Shown piece after piece: positions 35,941 through 62,177 of a stretch of 64,000 bases of DNA. A program made the position numbers and the translations under genes. Below the pieces are notes generated by a model. It was given only the letters and a program-made list of their open reading frames with translations. It did not search any database and had not been told where the DNA came from. Source of the DNA: Candidatus Wildermuthbacteria bacterium (GTDB lineage: Bacteria > Patescibacteriota > Minisyncoccia > Minisyncoccales > UBA10102); assembly GCA_016186115.1 (NCBI GenBank), contig JACPMK010000003.1, positions 26,470-90,469 on the forward strand, given 5' to 3'. How positions within the stretch are numbered: position 1 is the stretch's first letter; each line of letters starts with the position of its first letter.

Positions 35941-36810
35941 ATGGATATCCCTAAAAATCTTCTGGACTTTCAGCCAATTCAAGCATTTGTGAAGGGTATT
36001 GGCAAAGACGTGGAGAATTACTTTGGAAAAGATGATGGAGCTATCATCTATCTTCAGCCAGACGGCATTTGGTATGCGGAAGGATTGTATCAATGGTTGA
36101 GACAGCGTAAGCAGAATCTTGTCATTGCTACCATGGAAGATGACGGCGCTGGCTTAGAGGAAGATAAGGTGAAGGGGAGAAAAGTTCTTGTGGTGGACAA
36201 CGACGTGGTTACCGGCAAGGCGTACAAAAGGGCCATGGAAGCCTTGCGGGTGCGCAAGCGACGCCTGAATATAAGAGATATAAAATTCGCTACTTTCTTT
36301 GATCGGATCGGTGTGGCCGATTTCTTTGTTGAAAAATATTCGGCGGAAGCGATCTGGCATTTTGATGAATTTGATGCGGTGGACCTGAAAATTATTAAAC
36401 AGCTGGCGCAGGATGGGAAAAAACCGCTCGCAGAGATTGGGAAAGCAGTTGGCTTGAGCGCGGTTTCGGTGAAAAATCGTATCGACAAGCTTGTGGCATC
36501 CAAGACCCTTGAAATCAGGGGTATGCTGCGCATCGATCAGTTTTTTGTCATTGCCGGGCATATCTTTATTGAAGCCGACGGAGCAACAATTTCTAAACTT
36601 CTTGAGCAATTCGAACATATGCAAGAAGTGCTCCATGTTGCGAGAACCATCGGGAAGTGGAATTTACTTGTGTGCGTTCTTGGGCACAACGTGGAGAGCA
36701 TCGAACAATTTATTAATAGTACCATTCATACTCATGCAGGAGTGAAGCGCCTCGAGGTGTATCTTGGGGAACTTCCTGCCAAACCAAAGCTACTTCTCCC
36801 GCAAGCGTAG
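35941..36810 (+). CDS. Fusion protein: phosphoribosyltransferase-like domain + Lrp/AsnC-type HTH and RAM domain
   Basis: N-terminal KVLVVDNDVVTGKAY (PRPP-loop-like). C-terminal DLKIIKQLAQDGKKPLAEIGKAVGLSAVSVKNRIDKL HTH, followed by an about 80-aa ACT/RAM-like module. Confidence 0.65.
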   Translation: MDIPKNLLDFQPIQAFVKGIGKDVENYFGKDDGAIIYLQPDGIWYAEGLYQWLRQRKQNLVIATMEDDGAGLEEDKVKGRKVLVVDNDVVTGKAYKRAMEALRVRKRRLNIRDIKFATFFDRIGVADFFVEKYSAEAIWHFDEFDAVDLKIIKQLAQDGKKPLAEIGKAVGLSAVSVKNRIDKLVASKTLEIRGMLRIDQFFVIAGHIFIEADGATISKLLEQFEHMQEVLHVARTIGKWNLLVCVLGHNVESIEQFINSTIHTHAGVKRLEVYLGELPAKPKLLLPQA

Positions 36811-36869
36811 ACGTCCTTTTGTTCTTGTTGAGGTTGCAGGTTGTTTTGTCTGTGGTAGAATACATCTCA

Positions 36870-37976
36870 ATGCTCTCTAAAAGGAGAGCTAAAGAGGAGG
36901 AGGGAAAGGTGGTAACAGCTCGAACTGCAGTGAAAGTTGAAGAGGAAAGAACGGCGGCGGCATTGCATGAGCTCGTGGAGGAATTCTTCCGTACAGGCCG
37001 CTTGGTGGTTTTGGAGGCGTACGAGAGAGGATTGGGACGGCAGACACTTAGCGAGGTTCTCCATCGAAAGCGGGCGGAGGATGTGAAGATAGAGGCTGAT
37101 GACATAGGGGATGGCCTTTGGAAAGCGTTGCTAAGTGGGAGCAAGGAGGATCTCCAAGTATTACGCAAAATGCTTGCGATCTTTGGGAGCGTCTCTCTTG
37201 TATCAGCCGTAGAACGTTCCATCGGGAAAGCCCAAGAGCTGAAGAGAAGGCATCCGATCCTCGGCAAAATAAGGGTTCACTCCGAACATGGGGAGTACGG
37301 GAGCAGTGACCCACTGATCATTTGCTACATCGATCCCTTAGATGGGAGCGATGAATTTCGAAATAGGATCTCGGGGTGCTGGTACATTGCTGTGAGCTTT
37401 TTCAGTAAGGCCTTAAAACCTATTGCAGCAGCAATGCTCGATATTGGGCTTGGCGAGATGTTCTTTGTGCCCTCTCCTAGGGGAGATGGGAAGGTGCACG
37501 TTAAGTTCTTTGACTCCGGCAGAGAACGTTTTGAGAGCCCGATCTCGGCAAAAGTGCTCCCCAAAAAGGGCACAATCCTTGTATACATGGGTCGAGAAAA
37601 TTATCTCCGGTCATTCCTTGAGGTGGCATCCTTCGTTCACGATGAAGCGTACGAAGGACTCACTCTGCATGGAAAGGGCGGATCATTCATCTATGCATGG
37701 CTTGCAGCTGGCAGGGGCCTGGCTTACATCATGGCGAATGAGCCAGTGAACGAGATCCTCCCCGGGATAGGATTTGCAAAGCTCATGGGCTGCCCCGTGT
37801 GGGTTGTGTGGAAAGATGGCAGAAGGGAGCAATTCGATATTGAAAGACACGGCAAATTAGCTCGCGTTGACTATCTGGTAGTTGCTTGCAACGAGCGGTT
37901 TGGAGAGAATCTTCTTCCAAAGCTCAAGCTGCCGCAGCCAGGGTGGCTGTTGGAGCGAGAATTAGTTATGGTGTGA
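36870..37976 (+). CDS. Divergent inositol monophosphatase / FBPase-fold family protein
   Basis: YIDPLDGSDEF (DPxDGT-like) and GKGGSFIYAWLAAGRG motifs. Looks G+C-richer than its neighbours. Start uncertain. Confidence 0.55.
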   Translation: MLSKRRAKEEEGKVVTARTAVKVEEERTAAALHELVEEFFRTGRLVVLEAYERGLGRQTLSEVLHRKRAEDVKIEADDIGDGLWKALLSGSKEDLQVLRKMLAIFGSVSLVSAVERSIGKAQELKRRHPILGKIRVHSEHGEYGSSDPLIICYIDPLDGSDEFRNRISGCWYIAVSFFSKALKPIAAAMLDIGLGEMFFVPSPRGDGKVHVKFFDSGRERFESPISAKVLPKKGTILVYMGRENYLRSFLEVASFVHDEAYEGLTLHGKGGSFIYAWLAAGRGLAYIMANEPVNEILPGIGFAKLMGCPVWVVWKDGRREQFDIERHGKLARVDYLVVACNERFGENLLPKLKLPQPGWLLERELVMV

Positions 37977-37991
37977 CCATAACTATCAATC

Positions 37992-38040
37992 AAAGGGGCC
38001 TCTGGAGGTTTTCCCCAGAGGCCCCTTTTACTTTCTTTTT
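37992..38040 (+). terminator. Strong rho-independent terminator
   Basis: 14-bp perfect stem AAAGGGGCCTCTGG / CCAGAGGCCCCTTT followed by TACTTTCTTTTT. Confidence 0.85.
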
Positions 38041-38049
38041 GGAAACCCC

Positions 38050-38077
38050 TTGACAAATATTTTGCAATTCATACAAT
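38050..38077 (+). promoter_or_regulatory. Sigma70-type promoter of the greA leader
   Basis: TTGACA (38050-55), 16-nt spacer, TACAAT (38072-77). Confidence 0.6.
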
Positions 38078-38083
38078 GATATA

Positions 38084-38330
38084 TGATGTGGATTCGCCGT
38101 TAGGAAAATTAGGGCATTCACGGAGTGTTTGTTAGGATTTTGAAGCAGGTCAACATCATGGTACAACATTTGCAGCAAAATTGTTTTCGACAGTTCTCTC
38201 TCAAAAAGCTCAATAACCAGAAAGCCATTATTGAGATTTCGATTATTGCGCACAGCCGGATTTGTTGACAATACATATCATTAGTACTGCATCGTCAATA
38301 AATCTGGCTCTCGCAAGCCAGATTTTTTTC
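38084..38330 (+). promoter_or_regulatory. About 245-nt greA leader: candidate leader-peptide attenuator (Ile-rich micro-ORF 38158..38268, antiterminator/terminator alternative)
   Basis: Micro-ORF MVQHLQQNCFRQFSLKKLNNQKAIIEISIIAHSRIC. A 16-bp helix 38254-69 / 38294-309 competes with terminator AATCTGGCT-CTCGCA-AGCCAGATT + T7 (38301-38330). No room for a promoter before greA. Confidence 0.5.
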
Positions 38331-38352
38331 TTCAATAATATTCTCACTACGT

Positions 38353-38838
38353 ATGACAACTCAAACAACAACTCAACCCCCAAAATTTTATCTCACCAAA
38401 GAAGGACTCAAAAAAGTCCAAAAAGAATACGACAAGCTCCTTGAATTCCGCTCGCTGAAAATGAAGGGCGAAGTGCCCAGTATTTTGCATTCCGAAGATG
38501 TAAATCCTGATTACCTTACATTCCAAGAAGATATGAACTTGCTCGAATCCCGCATCGCCGAGTGCGAAAATATTCTCAAAAATGTTGAGTTGATTCAAAC
38601 TCCGAAAGAAGAAAAAAATATGGTCTGGTTAGGAGCAACAGTTACTCTTGAGGAAGTTCCAGACGGAACAATTAATGAGTACACTCTTCTGGGAACTCTT
38701 GAGGCGAATCCCGCAGAGGGTAAAATTTCTTCGGAATCCCCTGTGGGGCGGTCTCTTCTTGGGAAAAGAATAGGAGAAGAGGTGGTGATCAGTTCTCCTA
38801 TCCGAGTTGTCTACAAAGTTAAGAAAATTATTTATTAG
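38353..38838 (+). CDS. greA: Transcription elongation factor GreA
   Basis: N-terminal coiled coil (LTKEGLKKVQKEYDKL) and C-terminal FKBP-like domain (ISSESPVGRSLLGKRIGEEV). Confidence 0.85.
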   Translation: MTTQTTTQPPKFYLTKEGLKKVQKEYDKLLEFRSLKMKGEVPSILHSEDVNPDYLTFQEDMNLLESRIAECENILKNVELIQTPKEEKNMVWLGATVTLEEVPDGTINEYTLLGTLEANPAEGKISSESPVGRSLLGKRIGEEVVISSPIRVVYKVKKIIY

Positions 38839-38912
38839 ATTCATTTTAGCTTTTTTGGAGAATTATTATTCGTTGCGATAAGAACTAGATCGCAGGCGGT
38901 CTAGTTTTATTT

Positions 38913-40253
38913 ATGCTGTTTCGTGCATCTGTTATGCAACAACTTCTCAAATTTTTTTTGGAAGCGTCTCTATTAAAAACCACCCAAAGGACCGGGTGGG
39001 TTTGGAGAGGAATTTCGAATCCAGAAACCGTCGCAGAACATTCCTTTCGGTTAGCTTTTTTTGCATGGGTTTTAGGGAGGAAGGCCAACTTAAATACGAA
39101 TCGCTTGATTAAACTGGCACTCTTGCATGATATTTGTGAAGTGTATGCCGGTGACTTAACGCCCCATTATGGCACAGCCCGCTACAAAGAAATTATACGA
39201 TCAAAAGAGAAGAGGGGGGCCCTGCTGAAGCGCTGGATTCGCCTTCCGCGGAAGGAAAAAATAAAAGCCGCACGGCTCCGATTTCTTGCAGAGAAGCACG
39301 CTCTATTGCAAATCTTAAGGTTCTTGCCCCGAGAAAAACGTCAGGAGCTGCTCTCTTTGTGGATTGATTTTGAGAAGGGCAGAACAGCCGAAGGCAGATT
39401 TGTAAAACAACTCGATAAGATAGAGGTTCTTTTACAAGCCATTGAATACTTTGGAGTTGGGCAAAACACTTTTGTAACTGCATGGTGGGAGGAAGCAGAA
39501 GAACTGGTAGAGCACCCCGCTCTTCGGAGTTTTTTGAAGGCGCTTGAACAAAAACTTTACTACAAAGAAAAAACAGAGATGGATCCCCTCATTGACTTTT
39601 TGATGCAGATAGGAAAGTTGAAGAGAGCGCCATTGTATATATGGGTACTACGAAAAGTGAAGAATCCCGACTCAGTAGCAAATCACATATTTATGCTTGC
39701 GTTGATGGTCTGGCTGCTTTCTAGGGAAGAGAAACGTGTGTTTGATGCTGGAAGAGTCATAAAGATTGCTCTCTGTTCTGGCCTCTACGCAATACATCAG
39801 CCAGTCGTTACAAGCAGTTATGCCAAGGCTTTAGTGGGCGTAAAAACAGAAAAAGCAAGAGAAGAATTGTTAAAGAAATGGATTCGATATTCTGTAGAAG
39901 AAAAAAAAGCAATCGCAAGAGAACGCTATTCCCAAGAACGGCTAGCCGTTCAGAGGCTCGTTTCTTCATTAGGTGAAGATCTTCAAAAAGAGATTATTGG
40001 GTCATGGAGCGAATATCGAGATAGCCAGACCTCCGAAGCTCGCTTTGCCAATCAAGTATACGTTCTTGAACTTTTAACCCGAGCTCTTCAATATTGGACG
40101 AAAGATAAAGATTTTCCTATCAAGGCGTGGTGGGAATGGGCATTTGAAAGATCGGATACGCAGCAGAATTTACAATTCATGGCAGCATTAAAAAAGAAAT
40201 TTTACGTCTCGTCTCGCGTAGCTCGTAACAAAAAGGAAAGAGGGACTAGATAA
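38913..40253 (+). CDS. Tandem HD-domain protein (YfbR-like 5'-nucleotidase fold x2, second copy degenerate)
   Basis: First half has RTGW...VAEHSFR...LLHDICEVYAGD. The second half keeps VANH, but HD is replaced by SG (ALCSGLYA). Confidence 0.7.
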   Translation: MLFRASVMQQLLKFFLEASLLKTTQRTGWVWRGISNPETVAEHSFRLAFFAWVLGRKANLNTNRLIKLALLHDICEVYAGDLTPHYGTARYKEIIRSKEKRGALLKRWIRLPRKEKIKAARLRFLAEKHALLQILRFLPREKRQELLSLWIDFEKGRTAEGRFVKQLDKIEVLLQAIEYFGVGQNTFVTAWWEEAEELVEHPALRSFLKALEQKLYYKEKTEMDPLIDFLMQIGKLKRAPLYIWVLRKVKNPDSVANHIFMLALMVWLLSREEKRVFDAGRVIKIALCSGLYAIHQPVVTSSYAKALVGVKTEKAREELLKKWIRYSVEEKKAIARERYSQERLAVQRLVSSLGEDLQKEIIGSWSEYRDSQTSEARFANQVYVLELLTRALQYWTKDKDFPIKAWWEWAFERSDTQQNLQFMAALKKKFYVSSRVARNKKERGTR

Positions 40254-40273
40254 TCTTTATAGCTAGTCCCTCT

Positions 40274-40870
40274 TTACTCCTGCTCTTCTTTCCACCAGAT
40301 AAGTTCTTCTGGATTCTGCAAGAGTACTGCCCAGAGTGCTTTTGCGCTTTGCGTAACGATACGGAGCTCTATCTCCTTAATGAACTCGGCGGTATCGTAC
40401 CCTTCTTTTCTGTAGAATAGTGCTTGAATGCCCTGCTCAATAATCATGGCATCATGGACCACTTTCGACTCTATGGTTGTGTTCTCATGATATTCTTTGA
40501 GCAGCTCTTCGAGGAGGTTCTTGGCAGAAGAGGGGAGGCCTGCTCTTTGTTTTTCTTCTGCCGCTTGGTCGATTTCTATCTTTTTAACCCCTAGATTTTC
40601 CAGAAGTCGCGCGAGTGGCCGAGCGATGTCTCCCGTTCTGGATTCTCCAATATCGTGGAGAGTTGCCATTGTGCAACACCGGAAGGGGTTCGCGTTCTCT
40701 TCCTCAGCTAGTAAAACCGCAATGATCGCAGTAACGAAGGTATGGTCCGCAACGGATTCAACCTTCGAAGGGGAAACTCCAACGCGGAACCAACCGGTCC
40801 GAGGGAGTACCTTTAGGGTGAACGCTTCTATAATAAACCTTGCTATTCCTCTTAATTCTTCTGTTTCCAT
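40274..40870 (-). CDS. HD-domain phosphohydrolase (YfbR-like)
   Basis: PRTGW...VADHTF...TLHDIGESRTGD motif set. Confidence 0.75.
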   Translation of the reverse strand: METEELRGIARFIIEAFTLKVLPRTGWFRVGVSPSKVESVADHTFVTAIIAVLLAEEENANPFRCCTMATLHDIGESRTGDIARPLARLLENLGVKKIEIDQAAEEKQRAGLPSSAKNLLEELLKEYHENTTIESKVVHDAMIIEQGIQALFYRKEGYDTAEFIKEIELRIVTQSAKALWAVLLQNPEELIWWKEEQE

Positions 40871-58117: not shown

Positions 58118-58788
58118 TGGGCACTCTTTTTATTGTCGCCACACCAATCGGCAATCTCGAAGATATTACTCATCGGGCGCTTCGCGTATTGCGCCAAGCA
58201 GATTTTATCTTATGCGAAGATACAAGGGTTACCAAGAAATTGCTCGATCATTACGGAATTGCAACTCCAACGTTGAGCTATCATCAACACAGCACTCCAG
58301 AGAAGATGAGCTATGTTTTTGGTCTTTTATCTACTGGAAAGAATATCGCATTGGTTTCTGATTCCGGAACTCCCGGAATTGCAGACCCCGGCAATGAACT
58401 CATCGAATTTTTGCTCCAGAAAAATCCCGGAATAAACATAGCTCCTATTCCTGGCCCTTCTGCGGTCGCCGCAATCGCAAGCATTTCTGGGTTTCCAACG
58501 AATTCCTTTTTATTCTTGGGATATCCGCCGAGTAAAAAAGGCAGAAAGAAATTTTTTGAGAAAGTTGCAGAGTCGCAATGCCCAGTGATTTTCTACGAGT
58601 CGCCCTACCGGATTATAAAAACTCTGCAGCAGTTGCAGGAGTTAAGCCCAGAGGTATATGCGGTAGTGGGCAGGGAACTTACCAAACAATTCGAAACAAT
58701 CTCCCGCGGCCCTATTGACCAAGTGCTCCAAATAATGCAGAAAGATAAGGTAAAAGGAGAATTTGTGGTAATTGTATACAACCAATGA
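58117..58788 (+). CDS. rsmI: 16S rRNA (cytidine1402-2'-O)-methyltransferase
   Basis: LFIVATPIGNLEDIT, CEDTR, DSGTPGIADPG, and a tetrapyrrole-methylase fold pattern. Confidence 0.9.
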   Translation: MGTLFIVATPIGNLEDITHRALRVLRQADFILCEDTRVTKKLLDHYGIATPTLSYHQHSTPEKMSYVFGLLSTGKNIALVSDSGTPGIADPGNELIEFLLQKNPGINIAPIPGPSAVAAIASISGFPTNSFLFLGYPPSKKGRKKFFEKVAESQCPVIFYESPYRIIKTLQQLQELSPEVYAVVGRELTKQFETISRGPIDQVLQIMQKDKVKGEFVVIVYNQ

Positions 58789-60278
58789 ACAAAAAATTCT
58801 ATATCACAACTGCAATTCCCTATGTGAATGCCCGCCCGCACATCGGGCATGCTTTGGAATTTATTCAGGCCGATGTCATTGCGCGCTACCATCGTCTGAA
58901 GGGTGAGGAGGTTTTGCTTTTGTCTGGAAGCGATGAGAATGCGCTTAAAAATGTTCAAGCCGCCCAGAGCGCCGGAGTCCCTGTGCAGCAATTTATTGAT
59001 GAAAACGCCGTGCTTTTTGTCGAGTTGGCCAATGCGCTTGGCGTGCAATTCGACGTATTTCAAAAGGGAAGCAGCAAAGAACACCATCTCTCCAGTCAGA
59101 AACTGTGGCAACTTTGCGCCGAAAATGGGGATATCTACAAAAAATCCTACGAAGGTTTGTACTGCACGGGATGCGAAGCATTTTATACTCCAGATGAGCT
59201 TGATGCGAATCAGGAATGCCTTGAGCATCCCGGCCGAAAACTCGAGAGCGTCTCCGAAGAAAATTATTTTTTCAAACTTTCACGATATCAGGACAAAATC
59301 ATTAGTGTATTGGAAAGCGATGAATTGGAAATTGTTCCCGCGACCCGAAAAAATGAAATGCTCGCTTTTTTGAAACAGACACTGCAAGATATTAGCATTT
59401 CGCGCACCAATGAACGCGCCAAAAATTGGGGCGTGCCAGTTCCGGCCGATGATTCTCAAAGAATGTATGTTTGGTTCGATGCCCTCAATATGTATCAGTC
59501 GGGAGTTGGATTTGGATTAGATGAACAAAAGCATAACAAGTGGTGGCCGGCAGATATTCATGTGATTGGCAAGGGGATTATTCGTTTTCACGCGGTGTAC
59601 TGGCCGGCATTTCTTTTGTCGGCTGGGTTGCCTTTGCCCAAGAAAATCTTTGTTCATGGCTATATCACTTCAAGCGGACAAAAAATGTCAAAGACACTGG
59701 GAAATGTGGTTGATCCTTTTCCGCTTGTCGAAAAATATGGAAGTGGTGCAGTACGTTACTTTTTCTTGCGCGAAATTCCGCCGACAGAAGACGGCGATTT
59801 TTCCTATGAAAAATTCGAAGAGAGGTATAATTCTGACCTTGCGAGTGGTTTGGGAAATCTTGTCGCGAGAGTACTCGCGCTTGTAGGAAAAATAAATCCG
59901 AAATCCTTTGACAAGCTCAGAATCCCGAGCGAAGTCGAGGGACAAATTCAAAGTCCAAAACTGCGGGAAATTATAAATGCAGCGAGAGAAAAGGTGGATA
60001 CGGCGTTGGAAAAGTTTCAGTTTCAGGATGCGTTGATTGCCATTTGGGATGTGATTCATTTTTGCGACAGATATATTGAGGAGAAAAAACCGTGGTCTTT
60101 CGACTTCGCTCAAGATAAACCCGATCAAAAAGAAGTAATCGACGATTTATTGCTAGCAATTTTAGCAATCGGCACGCTTCTCAAGCCATTTCTCCCCGCG
60201 ACTTCAGAGAAAATAGCGAATCAATTGCAACATGGAAAAGGCGATCCTCTCTTCCCGCGTCTTGACAGAAATGTATGA
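58785..60278 (+). CDS. metG: Methionyl-tRNA synthetase (short form)
   Basis: PYVNARPHIGH (HIGH), KMSKTLGN, zinc knuckle CTGCEAF, C-terminal anticodon-binding helices. Confidence 0.95.
   Translation: MNKKFYITTAIPYVNARPHIGHALEFIQADVIARYHRLKGEEVLLLSGSDENALKNVQAAQSAGVPVQQFIDENAVLFVELANALGVQFDVFQKGSSKEHHLSSQKLWQLCAENGDIYKKSYEGLYCTGCEAFYTPDELDANQECLEHPGRKLESVSEENYFFKLSRYQDKIISVLESDELEIVPATRKNEMLAFLKQTLQDISISRTNERAKNWGVPVPADDSQRMYVWFDALNMYQSGVGFGLDEQKHNKWWPADIHVIGKGIIRFHAVYWPAFLLSAGLPLPKKIFVHGYITSSGQKMSKTLGNVVDPFPLVEKYGSGAVRYFFLREIPPTEDGDFSYEKFEERYNSDLASGLGNLVARVLALVGKINPKSFDKLRIPSEVEGQIQSPKLREIINAAREKVDTALEKFQFQDALIAIWDVIHFCDRYIEEKKPWSFDFAQDKPDQKEVIDDLLLAILAIGTLLKPFLPATSEKIANQLQHGKGDPLFPRLDRNV
59894..59941 (+). 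repeat. In-frame composite insertion in metG: two AAATCCN heptamers plus an imperfect palindrome
   Basis: AAATCCG AAATCCT, then CCTTTGAC (59905-12) / GTCGAGGG (59934-41) pairing with two G-U, and an inner GCTC/GAGC. Translated NPKSFDKLRIPSEVEG. Confidence 0.55.
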
Positions 60279-60289
60279 AAAAGTATACT
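60262..60289 (+). promoter_or_regulatory. Sigma70-type promoter overlapping the metG 3' end (cassette A)
   Basis: TTGACA (60262-67), 16-nt spacer, TATACT (60284-89). Confidence 0.6.
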
Positions 60290-60298
60290 ACACTAATC

Positions 60299-60379
60299 AT
60301 GAGCAGCCAGATCAGAAAAGGATTTTATTTCTTCTTTTTTACCAGCCCCGGCGAAGAGCGAGGTCGTTATTCTTGTTAA
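60299..60379 (+). CDS. Candidate near-leaderless leader peptide with a Phe/Tyr run (26 aa)
   Basis: MSSQIRKGFYFFFFTSPGEERGRYSC. The ATG is about 3-4 nt from the predicted TSS. The F/Y codons 60323-60340 are followed directly by ACCAGCCCC, which can pair with the terminator 3' arm. Confidence 0.35.
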   Translation: MSSQIRKGFYFFFFTSPGEERGRYSC

Positions 60380-60405
60380 TCGAAAACATCTAACCAAGAA
60401 ATCAC

Positions 60406-60441
60406 CCAGCCCTTCGTCAAACGAGGGGCTGGTTTTCTTTT
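60406..60441 (+). terminator. Rho-independent terminator / attenuator in the leader of the 117-aa ORF
   Basis: CCAGCCCTTCG-TCAAA-CGAGGGGCTGG (11 bp, one G-U) followed by TTTTCTTTT. Confidence 0.7.
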
Positions 60442-60542
60442 CGCCCTGCGGCGAAAAGACGATGTTTTCTGATGAGAGCTCCAACACATTCGGGTTTCTC
60501 ACCAGAGAAGATCTTAACTATCTCTGGTTAAGGAGGGAAACA

Positions 60543-60896
60543 ATGGCCGAACATCGTATGGGTATAATACAGGGTAGCACTGGAACGCTCAAAGAGGTTC
60601 TTGGAATGCTTGGGGTGTCGATAACAAAATTCGCATTCCAAGGGCATAATTCGTCGGACTCGTGTGGACAGCAAGGGGTGCATCCTCCTCACGTACTGGA
60701 GGAGTATAGACATTATTGCATTGGGAAAGCTGGCTGTGTGGGAGAGGATGTGCTTATCGTAATTGCCGAAGAACGGCAACTGTACCCAGCACGTGCAAAA
60801 GGGATTTACTTCCTCCTTCCAAGAAATGCATTCCCCTCTTTCCGGGATCCGCTTATGCAAGTTGGCGTAGGGCAAGGTCCTGGATATACCGGCTAA
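60543..60896 (+). CDS. Orphan protein, 117 aa, SD-led (P3)
   Basis: AAGGAGG (60530-36), 6-nt spacer, ATG at 60543. Cys/His-rich middle (SCGQQGVHPPH...YRHYCIGKAGCVGED). No family recognised. Confidence 0.55.
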   Translation: MAEHRMGIIQGSTGTLKEVLGMLGVSITKFAFQGHNSSDSCGQQGVHPPHVLEEYRHYCIGKAGCVGEDVLIVIAEERQLYPARAKGIYFLLPRNAFPSFRDPLMQVGVGQGPGYTG

Positions 60897-60917
60897 ATCT
60901 GGAAAGTACGGCCTATA

Positions 60918-60953
60918 GGGCGGAGCTTTACCGAGCTCCGCCCGTTTTCTTTT
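60918..60953 (+). terminator. Rho-independent terminator
   Basis: GGGCGGAGCT-TTACCG-AGCTCCGCCC (10 bp) followed by GTTTTCTTTT. Confidence 0.8.
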
Positions 60954-60998
60954 GACAAGCAGTTGACAACCCTGTTTTCAATTTGCTATGGTTATAAT
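60952..60998 (+). promoter_or_regulatory. Promoter of cassette B
   Basis: Consensus TATAAT at 60993-98. Two TTGACA copies (60952-57, 60963-68) are spaced too far away for a canonical -35, so the -35 is ambiguous. Confidence 0.45.
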
Positions 60999-61008
60999 AC
61001 TTGAGCTT

Positions 61009-61095
61009 ATGAAGAAAATCTCCCAAACAATGTTGCTTTTGTTGGTCTTGGTAACTAATCCTACTCGGTTGGGAGATTTTGATCGCAGAAGTTAA
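61009..61095 (+). CDS. Candidate near-leaderless leader peptide with a Leu/Val run (28 aa)
   Basis: MKKISQTMLLLLVLVTNPTRLGDFDRRS. The TTG CTT TTG TTG GTC TTG GTA codons are in phase. The ORF spans attenuator segments 1 and 2. Confidence 0.5.
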   Translation: MKKISQTMLLLLVLVTNPTRLGDFDRRS

Positions 61096-61121
61096 AAATA
61101 CAAAATTCCTTGCGACAACGT

Positions 61122-61153
61122 AACCTCCCAACCGCGGGAGGTTTCTTCTTTTG
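61122..61153 (+). terminator. Rho-independent terminator (segments 3:4 of the cassette B attenuator)
   Basis: AACCTCCC-AACCGC-GGGAGGTT followed by TCTTCTTTTGTCTT. Confidence 0.75.
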
Positions 61154-61327
61154 TCTTGAGGAGTAAGGAAAAGTTTATTCCTTATTCCCCAGGCCAGAAG
61201 AGTATGTCTGGTTTGGAGCAGCAAGTTCACCTACCATAAGCGTGAGCGTGCTGTAGGAAGATAATCCTGCGATCGGGTAACATCTGTGAGCAGGATAATC
61301 CTCTGAATTGCTAAGGAGGAGAACGAG

Positions 61328-61387
61328 GTGGTTGAGAAGACCCCCCACTTTCTTGGCTGCTTCGTTCTCTTCCCGCGCAATGTTTAG
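61328..61387 (+). CDS. Possible 19-aa micro-ORF, SD-led
   Basis: AAGGAGG (61313-19), 8-nt spacer, GTG at 61328. Encodes MVEKTPHFLGCFVLFPRNV. Confidence 0.25.
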   Translation: MVEKTPHFLGCFVLFPRNV

Positions 61388-61410
61388 CACATTGTATGAA
61401 GGAGGGTGAG

Positions 61411-61584
61411 ATGTACTTTGGTTCGCACATTTGCTGTCTGGATGCCTTTTTCATAGGGGAGGACGGCAGTGGGGCGGTGAAAAAACTTAAAGAGGCGCCA
61501 CCGCCGCCACCAGAAAACGAAAAGGAGAAACTTCTTCCTGCTGACGAAGACCTGCAAGGTCAGCAGGACGAGAAATCATCCTAG
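61411..61584 (+). CDS. Orphan protein, 57 aa, SD-led (P4)
   Basis: AAGGAGGG (61399-406), then ATG at 61411. Encodes MYFGSHICCLDAFFIGEDGSG...APPPPPENEKEK... with an acidic tail. Confidence 0.45.
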   Translation: MYFGSHICCLDAFFIGEDGSGAVKKLKEAPPPPPENEKEKLLPADEDLQGQQDEKSS

Positions 61585-61594
61585 CTCTCCCATG

Positions 61595-61647
61595 CGGCTC
61601 CTTTTGTTTGCGCATCAACGCGCAGCAGGAGGAGCCGTCCATTTTTT
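61595..61647 (+). terminator. Compound hairpin terminator
   Basis: CGGCTCCT (61595-602) / AGGAGCCG (61630-37) with inner TGCGC/GCGCA, followed by TCCATTTTTT. Confidence 0.6.
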
Positions 61648-61649
61648 AC

Positions 61650-61678
61650 TTGACATTATCCCTTGAGCTTACTAGTAT
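61650..61678 (+). promoter_or_regulatory. Sigma70-type promoter of cassette E
   Basis: TTGACA (61650-55), 17-nt spacer, TAGTAT (61673-78). Confidence 0.55.
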
Positions 61679-61695
61679 AAAATATACTCTTCAGC

Positions 61696-61788
61696 ATGGA
61701 CATTATTTTACAGATCAGACAAGCGATTATTGGCATTATTACCATTATTAGCCCCACCAAACGAGGGAGTTTCTTGCAGCAGCTATAA
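61696..61788 (+). CDS. Candidate leader peptide with an Ile run (30 aa)
   Basis: MDIILQIRQAIIGIITIISPTKRGSFLQQL. Four ATTATT pairs plus one ATC are all in frame with the ATG. Confidence 0.45.
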   Translation: MDIILQIRQAIIGIITIISPTKRGSFLQQL

Positions 61789-61813
61789 ACTACAAACTAC
61801 TAACTAAAATCTG
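61786..61813 (+). repeat. Heptanucleotide-periodic tract (TAAACTA type) between micro-ORF and terminator
   Basis: TAAACTA CAAACTA CTAACTA AAATCTG. Confidence 0.7.
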
Positions 61814-61814
61814 C

Positions 61815-61845
61815 ATCAGCTCCCTCGCGGGGGCTGATTTTTTTG
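61815..61845 (+). terminator. Rho-independent terminator (cassette E)
   Basis: ATCAGCTCCC-TCGC-GGGGGCTGAT (10 bp, one G-U); the run of seven T (61838-61844) begins at the last stem T. Confidence 0.8.
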
Positions 61846-61928
61846 AGCATAGTGCATGGGCTTGATTCTCCAATCTCATTCACTGCGCTCAATACCAGAG
61901 AGTGCAGTAATAGCACGAGGAGGGTGTA

Positions 61929-62111
61929 ATGAAAAGGGAAGAGAAGTCCGATATTATTGAAGAAATCGTGACGGTTCTCGCGGGAGGAGATTTTGCCGGA
62001 GGCGAGAAACAGCGCCGCAAAAATCGAAAAGATAAGCTGGAGAAGAAGAGGTGGGGGAAAGCTGCTGCTGACGCAGGAGCTCTGCCTGCCAAAGACAGTC
62101 TTGATTTGTAA
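61929..62111 (+). CDS. Orphan protein, 60 aa, SD-led (P5), highly charged
   Basis: GAGGAGGG (61916-23), then ATG at 61929. Encodes MKREEKSDIIEEIVTVLAGGDFAGGEKQRRKNRKDKLEKKRWGK.... Confidence 0.5.
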   Translation: MKREEKSDIIEEIVTVLAGGDFAGGEKQRRKNRKDKLEKKRWGKAAADAGALPAKDSLDL

Positions 62112-62136
62112 TTTATGTTTCTCTTCCTTAGGTTTC

Positions 62137-62177
62137 GGGGGCTCGCTGAATGGTTCGCGAAGTGAGCCCCCTTTTTT
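62137..62177 (+). terminator. Rho-independent terminator
   Basis: GGGGGCTCGC / GTGAGCCCCC (10 bp, one G-U), 15-nt loop, followed by TTTTTT. Confidence 0.8.

Follow-up and report, generated by a model that had tools for sequence, protein, structure and literature searches.

The greA locus and its relatives

The subject of this analysis is the leader of greA, a gene for a GreA/GreB-family transcript cleavage factor, in a 64,000-nucleotide (nt) stretch of DNA from Candidatus Wildermuthbacteria bacterium (contig JACPMK010000003.1 of assembly GCA_016186115.1), hereafter the window (Table 1). Both Pfam GreA_GreB domains are matched by the predicted product, and its top NCBIfam matches are full-length GreA models, although these fall under their curated cut-offs; on these matches the gene downstream of the leader is GreA-like. 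The promoter that an earlier preliminary description of this DNA had placed ahead of the leader is present as stated. It agrees with the consensus at 11 of 12 positions, is the top-scoring promoter-like site across 36500-40500, and predicts a transcription start at about 38083-85 and hence a leader of ~245 nt. Immediately upstream, the neighbouring gene ends in a terminator built on an inverted repeat (I1) that is 100% complementary and scores -27.1 kcal/mol in a hairpin scan. Because this terminator and a terminator-like hairpin downstream flank the unit, greA is monocistronic and dependent on its own promoter. A further terminator lies between that promoter and the greA ATG, here and in relatives, so that greA would have to be expressed by read-through, as had been proposed.

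Table 1. Features of the greA locus, in window coordinates
Feature	Position	Strand	Basis or remark
Intrinsic terminator of upstream gene	37992..38028	+	14-bp stem, 9-nt loop, T-run
Sigma-70-type promoter, TTGACA-16-TACAAT	38050..38077	+	TTGACA 38050-55, TACAAT 38072-77
5'-terminal ATGATG mini-ORF, MMWIRR*	38083..38103	+	lineage-specific; also in L161
Window-specific 5' extension, ~75 nt	38083..38160	+	leader alignment; absent in relatives
Putative leader-peptide ORF, 36 codons + TGA: MVQHLQQNCFRQFSLKKLNNQKAIIEISIIAHSRIC	38158..38268	+	homologous-position ORFs in relatives
Region 2, antiterminator 5' arm AGCCGGATTTGTTGAC	38254..38269	+	folding, alignment, RNAalifold
Region 3, antiterminator 3' arm GTCAATAAATCTGGCT	38294..38309	+	pairs with region 2
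Intrinsic terminator (regions 3:4), 10-bp stem, 6-nt loop, T7 run	38300..38329	+	folding, covariation
greA, GreA/GreB-family transcript cleavage factor, 161 aa	38353..38838	+	Pfam PF01272, PF03449
Terminator-like hairpin 3' of greA, end of unit	38881..38908	+	hairpin scan
Abbreviations: bp, base pairs; ORF, open reading frame; aa, amino acids.

Related greA loci were collected from representative genomes, metagenomes and exact-protein look-ups, and the named GreA matches closest to the window protein belong to Wildermuthbacteria and Paceibacteria (Patescibacteria). One locus, L161, from run SRR4343435, is of the same strain, with a GreA 99% identical. Eleven further distinct leaders carry the pattern of pairing regions described below (L162, L163, L164, L166, L167, L168, L169, L170, L172, L091 and L002; the leader of L165 is identical to that of L164), and their GreA proteins are 52-77% identical to that of the window. 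These leaders measure roughly 130-210 nt, against ~245 nt in the window. L002 is cut at its 5' end, leaving 11 complete leaders for the counts that involve the ORF. A TTGACA/TAnAAT promoter occupies the corresponding site in 10 relatives.

Two mutually exclusive hairpins

The leader contains two hairpins that compete for one strand. Region 2 pairs with region 3 over 16 bp, including two G-U pairs, as the preliminary description had claimed. The terminator stem (AAATCTGGCT at 38300-09 with AGCCAGATTT at 38316-25) encloses the loop CTCGCA and runs into a T-run at 38323-29, whose last T lies 23 nt from the greA ATG at 38353; the terminator and its distance from greA had thus been recognised correctly, with the T-run coordinate off by one base. 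Since the final 10 nt of region 3 (38300-09) are the 5' arm of the terminator, the antiterminator and the terminator are mutually exclusive. Both are far more stable than expected by chance: the antiterminator hairpin folds with -23 kcal/mol (z -6.75) and the terminator hairpin with -13.1 kcal/mol (z -5.26), and in neither case did any of 200 shuffles equal the observed value. The leader as a whole is unremarkable in stability (z -1.65), and its minimum-free-energy fold adopts the antiterminator. The terminator motif occurs only once in the window. As the antiterminator is more stable than the terminator on naked RNA, read-through would be the default state.

Both helices are maintained through sequence change in the relatives. 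The conserved core consists of GGCCGGATTT in region 2, AAATCTGGCC in region 3 and GGCCAGATTT in region 4, the 3' arm of the terminator. Where region 3 has changed, as in L163, which reads AAACCTGGCT, a matching A-to-G change is found in both region 2 and region 4, and L166 lacks one base from each of the three regions. Towards its outer end the antiterminator varies from lineage to lineage yet still pairs (TTGAC/GTCAA, GATGATTG/CAATCAGC, TATATCGATTGAT/ATCAATCGATATA, GCTG/CAGC). In the alignment of 12 leaders, 92% of terminator cells are paired, against 15-55% when the partner is slid by 1-3 columns, and five pairs have changed on both sides; the observed terminator covariation score was reached by none of 500 shuffles. 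For the antiterminator the corresponding figures are 89% against 31-43%, with four two-sided pair changes, and the RNAalifold consensus structure is the antiterminator. Taken one sequence at a time, the antiterminator duplexes range from -15 to -30 kcal/mol (z -2.5 to -9.4) and are in every member stronger than the terminator (-10 to -17 kcal/mol). Small local hairpins beside region 2 are shared within subgroups only. It is very probable, then, that the antiterminator/terminator switch is real.

An Rfam scan of the leader, at the gathering threshold and at permissive E-values, matched no leader family, and a comparison with a phage collection showed no similarity. A sub-threshold Rfam match to His_leader was discarded, as it lies on the opposite strand over the terminator of the neighbouring gene.

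A reading frame that ends in the antiterminator

The 36-codon ORF described earlier, with six in-phase ATT codons, is present as claimed; its peptide ends in AIIEISIIAHSRIC, and its TGA stop codon (38266-68) falls within the 5' arm of the antiterminator. Taken by itself this ORF is not significant (shuffle p 0.07), and significance arises only with the relatives. When the leaders are anchored on region 2 and the three forward frames are compared, the frame that stops in region 2 is an ATG-started ORF in all 11 complete leaders, extending 17-32 codons upstream of region 2, whereas the other two forward frames have almost no such ORFs. In 10 of 11 leaders no stop interrupts this frame between the -10 box and region 2, and its ATG follows the box by 9-34 nt. 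In all 12 members the first base of the stop codon lies 3-18 nt into region 2, in contexts that differ: AGC CGG ATT TGT TGA in the window, GGC CGG ATT TAT TGA in L169 and L091, GGC TAG in L164, L166 and L002, and CGC CAG GTT TGA in L163. The small ORF and the pairing, whose absence from relatives the preliminary description had named as evidence against an attenuator, are therefore both found there.

Dinucleotide shuffling gives p values of 0.01-0.08 per leader, which combine to 1.3e-7 (Fisher) or, conservatively, taking the worst member of each of six subgroups, to 9e-5, although both combined values overstate independence because the leaders are phylogenetically related. Within the 22 codons before region 2, no stop is found among 242 codons of the ORF frame, while the two other forward frames have 13 and 11 stops. 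Of the ATGs that lie between the -10 box and region 2, 17 of 20 belong to the ORF frame (three of three in the window), and in 10 of 11 leaders this frame also contains the first ATG. Ungapped identity upstream of region 2 is mostly 20-45%, which is near random, and the peptides, of 18 to 36 aa, differ in length by whole codons. The absence of stops and the in-frame ATGs, despite such low identity, indicate that the frame has been maintained through extensive divergence. ORFs on the minus strand across the leader have no Pfam match, and the minus frames hold stops in relatives. The leader ORF is probably translated and coupled to the switch.

These features bear on an alternative in which the attenuator works through RNA alone, as in the GraL RNAs of E. 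coli greA, with RNA polymerase, GreA, a trans-acting factor or a ligand making the decision and the ORF either irrelevant or a stabiliser. Such an arrangement has precedents: terminators in greA leaders occur widely, GreA of E. coli is an autorepressor that acts through its leader in cis (PMC2836576, PMC6829880), greA leaders with antiterminators have been predicted in Proteobacteria and Firmicutes (PMC2965389), and the short leader terminators of Chloroflexi greA carry no ORF. The poor conservation of the leader peptide sequences points the same way. However, control by RNA alone leaves several things unexplained: that all 11 complete leaders keep one frame open with an ATG close to the 5' end, that hardly any ATG is out of frame, that the stop always falls in region 2, and that the ORF frame alone shows a depletion of acidic residues; nor does the leader belong to any Rfam family. 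I consider this alternative unlikely.

The depletion concerns 5 acidic residues among 309, where 19 would be expected from base composition (p 1e-4), compared with 45 of 569 in the off-frames, and every peptide carries a net positive charge, from +1 to +6. This composition suggests selection on the product, and one may ask whether the ORF encodes a functional small basic hydrophobic peptide that works in trans or as a small protein, with the attenuator merely setting the ratio of peptide to GreA. There is precedent for leader peptides that act in trans, such as peTrpL (PMC7298713). Within subgroups the peptides have conserved C-terminal halves, and the changes in this half between L164 and L168 are by eye mostly synonymous, with synonymous changes also among L164, L168 and L172. 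Against this, the peptides cannot be aligned between subgroups, vary twofold in length (18-36 aa) and have no Pfam match, and what stays constant is where the stop falls within region 2, a relation at the level of the RNA. A product with a function of its own thus seems distinctly improbable.

One short motif does recur at the C-terminus, [S/G]-[R/Q/W]-I-[C/Y]-stop, which raises the possibility of a nascent-peptide arrest sensor: a C-terminus such as …SRIC*, …GRIY* or …LRGQIC* might stall the ribosome at or near the stop in response to a small molecule or tunnel-binding antibiotic, leaving region 2 covered. The peptides are basic, and in four members, the window among them, the stop stands in the poor termination context UGA-C. 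But L164, L166 and L002 stop three codons earlier, at GGC TAG, and have lost the motif; greA is not a resistance gene; and the recurrent C-terminus need not reflect selection on the peptide, because it is encoded by the conserved RNA arm. I therefore give arrest very little credence.

Isoleucine enrichment is not conserved

The preliminary description went further and proposed that the leader senses isoleucine (Ile), such that scarce Ile-tRNA would stall ribosomes at the six ATT codons, the antiterminator would form and greA would be induced. In the window the arrangement looks suitable, as the last 13 residues of the peptide hold six Ile, all encoded by ATT, and Ile 24-27 sit 16-27 nt upstream of region 2, a distance at which a stalled ribosome would not cover region 2. 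A stall at Ile 29, 30 or 35, however, would put the ribosome itself over region 2. More importantly, the enrichment is not conserved, and Ile-specific sensing is therefore unsupported: across the 12 peptides the number of Ile ranges from 0 (L163 and L002) to 6 (the window), relatives have 0-4, tandem Ile runs occur in the window only, and no enriched residue is shared among the peptides. The one recurrent Ile is the ATT within GGATTT of region 2, a sequence conserved for its structure. Ile makes up 10% of residues overall in these AT-rich ORFs, and the Ile-rich tail of the window peptide looks like lineage-specific AT-rich coding. GreA is not known to have any functional link to isoleucine, which also counts against the proposal. 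Sensing of Ile is very unlikely, though it might be a trait peculiar to the lineage of the window.

A proposed ribosome-dependent attenuator for greA

How would the leader ORF be initiated? No motif resembling a Shine-Dalgarno (SD) sequence precedes 38 of the 43 long ORFs in the window, and a TAnAAT box lies 6-8 nt ahead of the ATG in several window genes (for example the ATGs at 36870, 54437 and 62660), which suggests that leaderless mRNAs are frequent in this genome. The leader AUG of the relatives lies 2-27 nt from the predicted 5' end. Given this proximity and the scarce use of SD sequences, initiation of the leader ORF is probably leaderless or dependent on the 5' end.

I favour the reading that the leader is a ribosome-dependent, leader-peptide transcription attenuator controlling greA, with the logic of the trp attenuator but without its regulatory codons, and would assign it a probability of about 0.6. 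The promoter starts a ~245-nt leader able to form either the 2:3 antiterminator or the 3:4 terminator. A ribosome close behind RNA polymerase would reach the stop and mask region 2 while regions 3 and 4 emerge; with region 2 masked, the terminator would form and most transcripts would end before greA. If instead the ribosome lagged, stalled upstream or were absent, regions 2 and 3 would pair, and read-through would yield more GreA. The position of the stop inside region 2 is consistent with the rule first proposed, that a ribosome at the stop brings about termination and a stalled one read-through. Of the leader-peptide attenuator as originally described, the conserved anatomy, the ORF in a fixed frame and a geometry that fits the proposed logic thus stand, and the Ile specificity does not.

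The signal would be the general status of translation or the degree of coupling between translation and transcription, and this is the most likely kind of signal because no amino acid is singled out by regulatory codons. Polymerases that have become uncoupled from ribosomes backtrack more, and Gre factors rescue them. The proposed direction therefore makes biological sense, as uncoupled polymerases would elicit more of an anti-backtracking factor. GreA could also feed back by altering pausing in the leader. For this particular direction and signal the odds appear slightly short of even. A stronger version, in which the leader is a dedicated coupling sensor whose codon-agnostic peptide, starting from or near the 5' end, tracks the first ribosome against RNA polymerase and sets the GreA level, should be considered rather unlikely.

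Several observations weigh against a ribosome-dependent attenuator. The window ORF, unlike those of the relatives, begins 75 nt from the 5' end and without an SD sequence, and the ~75-nt extension upstream of it holds an ATGATG in the same frame that is interrupted by a TAG at 38101 and another at 38110, 9 nt apart; initiation at 38158 is uncertain for these reasons. Folds of the RNA up to region 2 gave no common 1:2 helix that could serve as a pause or anti-antiterminator hairpin. Such a pairing had been proposed between GTCAACA (38149-55) and TGTTGAC (38263-69), and the two are exact complements in the window, but they are without counterpart in relatives. L173 and L086, whose GreA proteins are 58-70% identical to that of the window, have short plain leaders and no attenuator, and in L163 and L170 the U-tract 3' of the hairpin is poor. 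Third-codon-position bias is weak over whole ORFs ([15,16,22] and [24,21,25]), as for a peptide barely constrained, and the selection claimed here is therefore on the existence and composition of the ORF and not on the peptide sequence. Finally, that the ORF is translated, that transcripts end at 38326-30 and that regulation runs in the proposed direction are all deduced from sequence, and coupling as the physiological signal is put forward as a hypothesis.

The 5' extension itself folds only into a weak hairpin (-18.9 kcal/mol, z -1.8, not significant) that contains an inverted repeat (I10) and pairs the 5' AUGAUGU with bases up to and including the leader AUG; the fold of the full leader places this AUG in a 17-nt loop. 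The ATGATG segment at 38083-38112 may derive from an ancestral ORF that was split, may act as a mini-ORF followed by re-initiation, or may be there by chance. Recoding of the two in-frame TAGs was ruled out, as greA's own stop is TAG.

If the proposed attenuator is real, control of greA gains a testable input, namely ribosome occupancy of the leader, and a rationale, namely extra GreA when polymerases are uncoupled and prone to backtracking. It would also be among the few regulatory mechanisms inferred for Patescibacteria, whose genomes are tiny and, here, make almost no use of SD sequences, and would exemplify attenuation that relies on leaderless-type initiation.

Distribution of the design and other features

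Beyond the leaders with the conserved core, the design fades. Loci whose GreA is 28-46% identical to that of the window mostly lack it, and a covariance model of the antiterminator region, run against 97 loci, recovered only its source sequences, leaving L081 and more distant Patescibacteria undetected. A second group of relatives (L171, L003, L005, L001, L089 and L004; L087, L090 and L083 are identical to L003, L005 and L001, respectively) has unrelated leader sequences with the same order of parts: a consensus promoter, an ORF of 27-44 codons, a segment pairing with a hairpin's 5' arm, and that hairpin just before greA. Here the analysis was less rigorous, with shuffle fractions of 0.09-0.54 per leader. 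Basic runs (RKKR, KKKK) are common at the ends of the peptides, and in some members GGAGG forms the 3' arm of the hairpin, so that control may be translational.

Chloroflexi greA genes have conserved short leader terminators directly after the promoter and no upstream ORF, much like GraL (GACTGAAGG...CCTTCAGTC plus a run of 5-6 T, or GGGCACAGC...GCTGTGTCTTT; Dehalococcoidia-like loci L107, L106, L020, L122 and L007, and Anaerolineae-like loci L050, L130, L148 and L153). In L082 (~1150-1250) an upstream ORF of 30 codons ends in a TGA that shares bases with the greA ATG (ATGA), and no terminator is present, which looks like translational coupling instead of attenuation. In L084 (~655-875) an insertion of ~220 nt with terminal inverted repeats GGCCTACTGCGCAAAGATTT ... 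AAATCTTTGCGCAGTAGGCC separates the leader terminator from greA and looks like a miniature transposable element.

One or two extra near-consensus TTGACA/TATAAT promoters lie in tandem ~110-130 nt upstream of the leader promoter in L164, L167, L168, L169, L170, L172 and L081, and the spacer of the proximal promoter (AAGCTTTCTTGG...) is conserved in several relatives. Downstream of greA, the gene at 38913-40253 encodes two HD (YfbR-like 5'-deoxynucleotidase) domains and such a gene follows greA in nearly all relatives too; in this conserved neighbourhood an AsnC-type regulator fused to a phosphoribosyltransferase-like domain often stands ahead of greA. Elsewhere in the window, ~1.9 kb (60280-62150) located 3' of a methionyl-tRNA-synthetase-like ORF (58785-60278) has no convincing ORF, and an Rfam search of this segment found nothing. 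Five strong terminator-like hairpins lie on the + strand at 60406-32, 60918-43, 61122-43, 61815-38 and 62586-613.

Comparison with known attenuators

The closest mechanistic parallels are the attenuators of amino acid operons (trp, his, leu, thr, pheA and ilv). They share with the greA leader a short promoter-proximal ORF, an antiterminator and an intrinsic terminator that use one strand in common, and a stop placed such that a finishing ribosome masks region 2 while a lagging one allows read-through. The greA leader differs from them in having neither tandem regulatory codons nor a conserved enriched amino acid, which is the defining feature of that family, and no conserved 1:2 pause or anti-antiterminator hairpin was found among the greA leaders. 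In addition, the regulated gene encodes a transcription factor and is not a biosynthetic operon, and the leader ORF apparently starts near the 5' end without an SD sequence.

The leader ORF of pyrBI extends through the terminator, and there a ribosome close to the polymerase prevents termination. The likeness lies in an outcome set by the distance between ribosome and polymerase instead of by a specific charged tRNA. In the greA leader, however, the ORF stops short of region 3, and the prediction is that a ribosome near the polymerase promotes termination. The attenuators of erm, vmlR and msrD differ in another way, since no arrest motif is conserved across the subgroups here and the downstream gene is greA and not a resistance gene.

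Attenuation of greA as such has been described before. In E. coli, strong promoters and a leader terminator yield the GraL RNAs (PMC2836576), and autoregulation by GreA needs the leader in cis and a further factor that the authors leave unidentified (PMC6829880). The Wildermuthbacteria locus resembles this system in its strong promoter, its terminator inside the greA leader and its greA mRNA made by read-through; an abundant short leader transcript would be expected here as well, and tandem promoters are frequent in the relatives. Yet GraL measures 40-60 nt and has no reported ORF or leader peptide (PMC2836576, PMC6829880), and its control is autoregulation through an undefined cis mechanism, whereas the leader studied here is ~245 nt long (~130-210 nt in relatives) and has a conserved ORF and an explicit antiterminator, with no sequence similarity to GraL and no Rfam match.

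In the ranking by Naville and Gautheret (2010) of gene families that have attenuators upstream, greA/rnk comes seventh, and the greA leaders of enterobacteria and bacillus are depicted there with antiterminators (PMC2965389). The greA/rnk leaders of Proteobacteria, bacilli and clostridia in that study likewise combine a 5' terminator with an identifiable antiterminator, but they are presented as RNA motifs, belong to other taxa with other sequences, and are treated in a greA section without a leader peptide. A full-text literature search, judged mostly by titles and abstracts, together with the full text of PMC2965389, yielded no greA leader peptide. As far as these sources extend, greA leader terminators themselves are already known, from E. 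coli GraL, and what appears to be new here is a leader-peptide mechanism for the greA attenuator.

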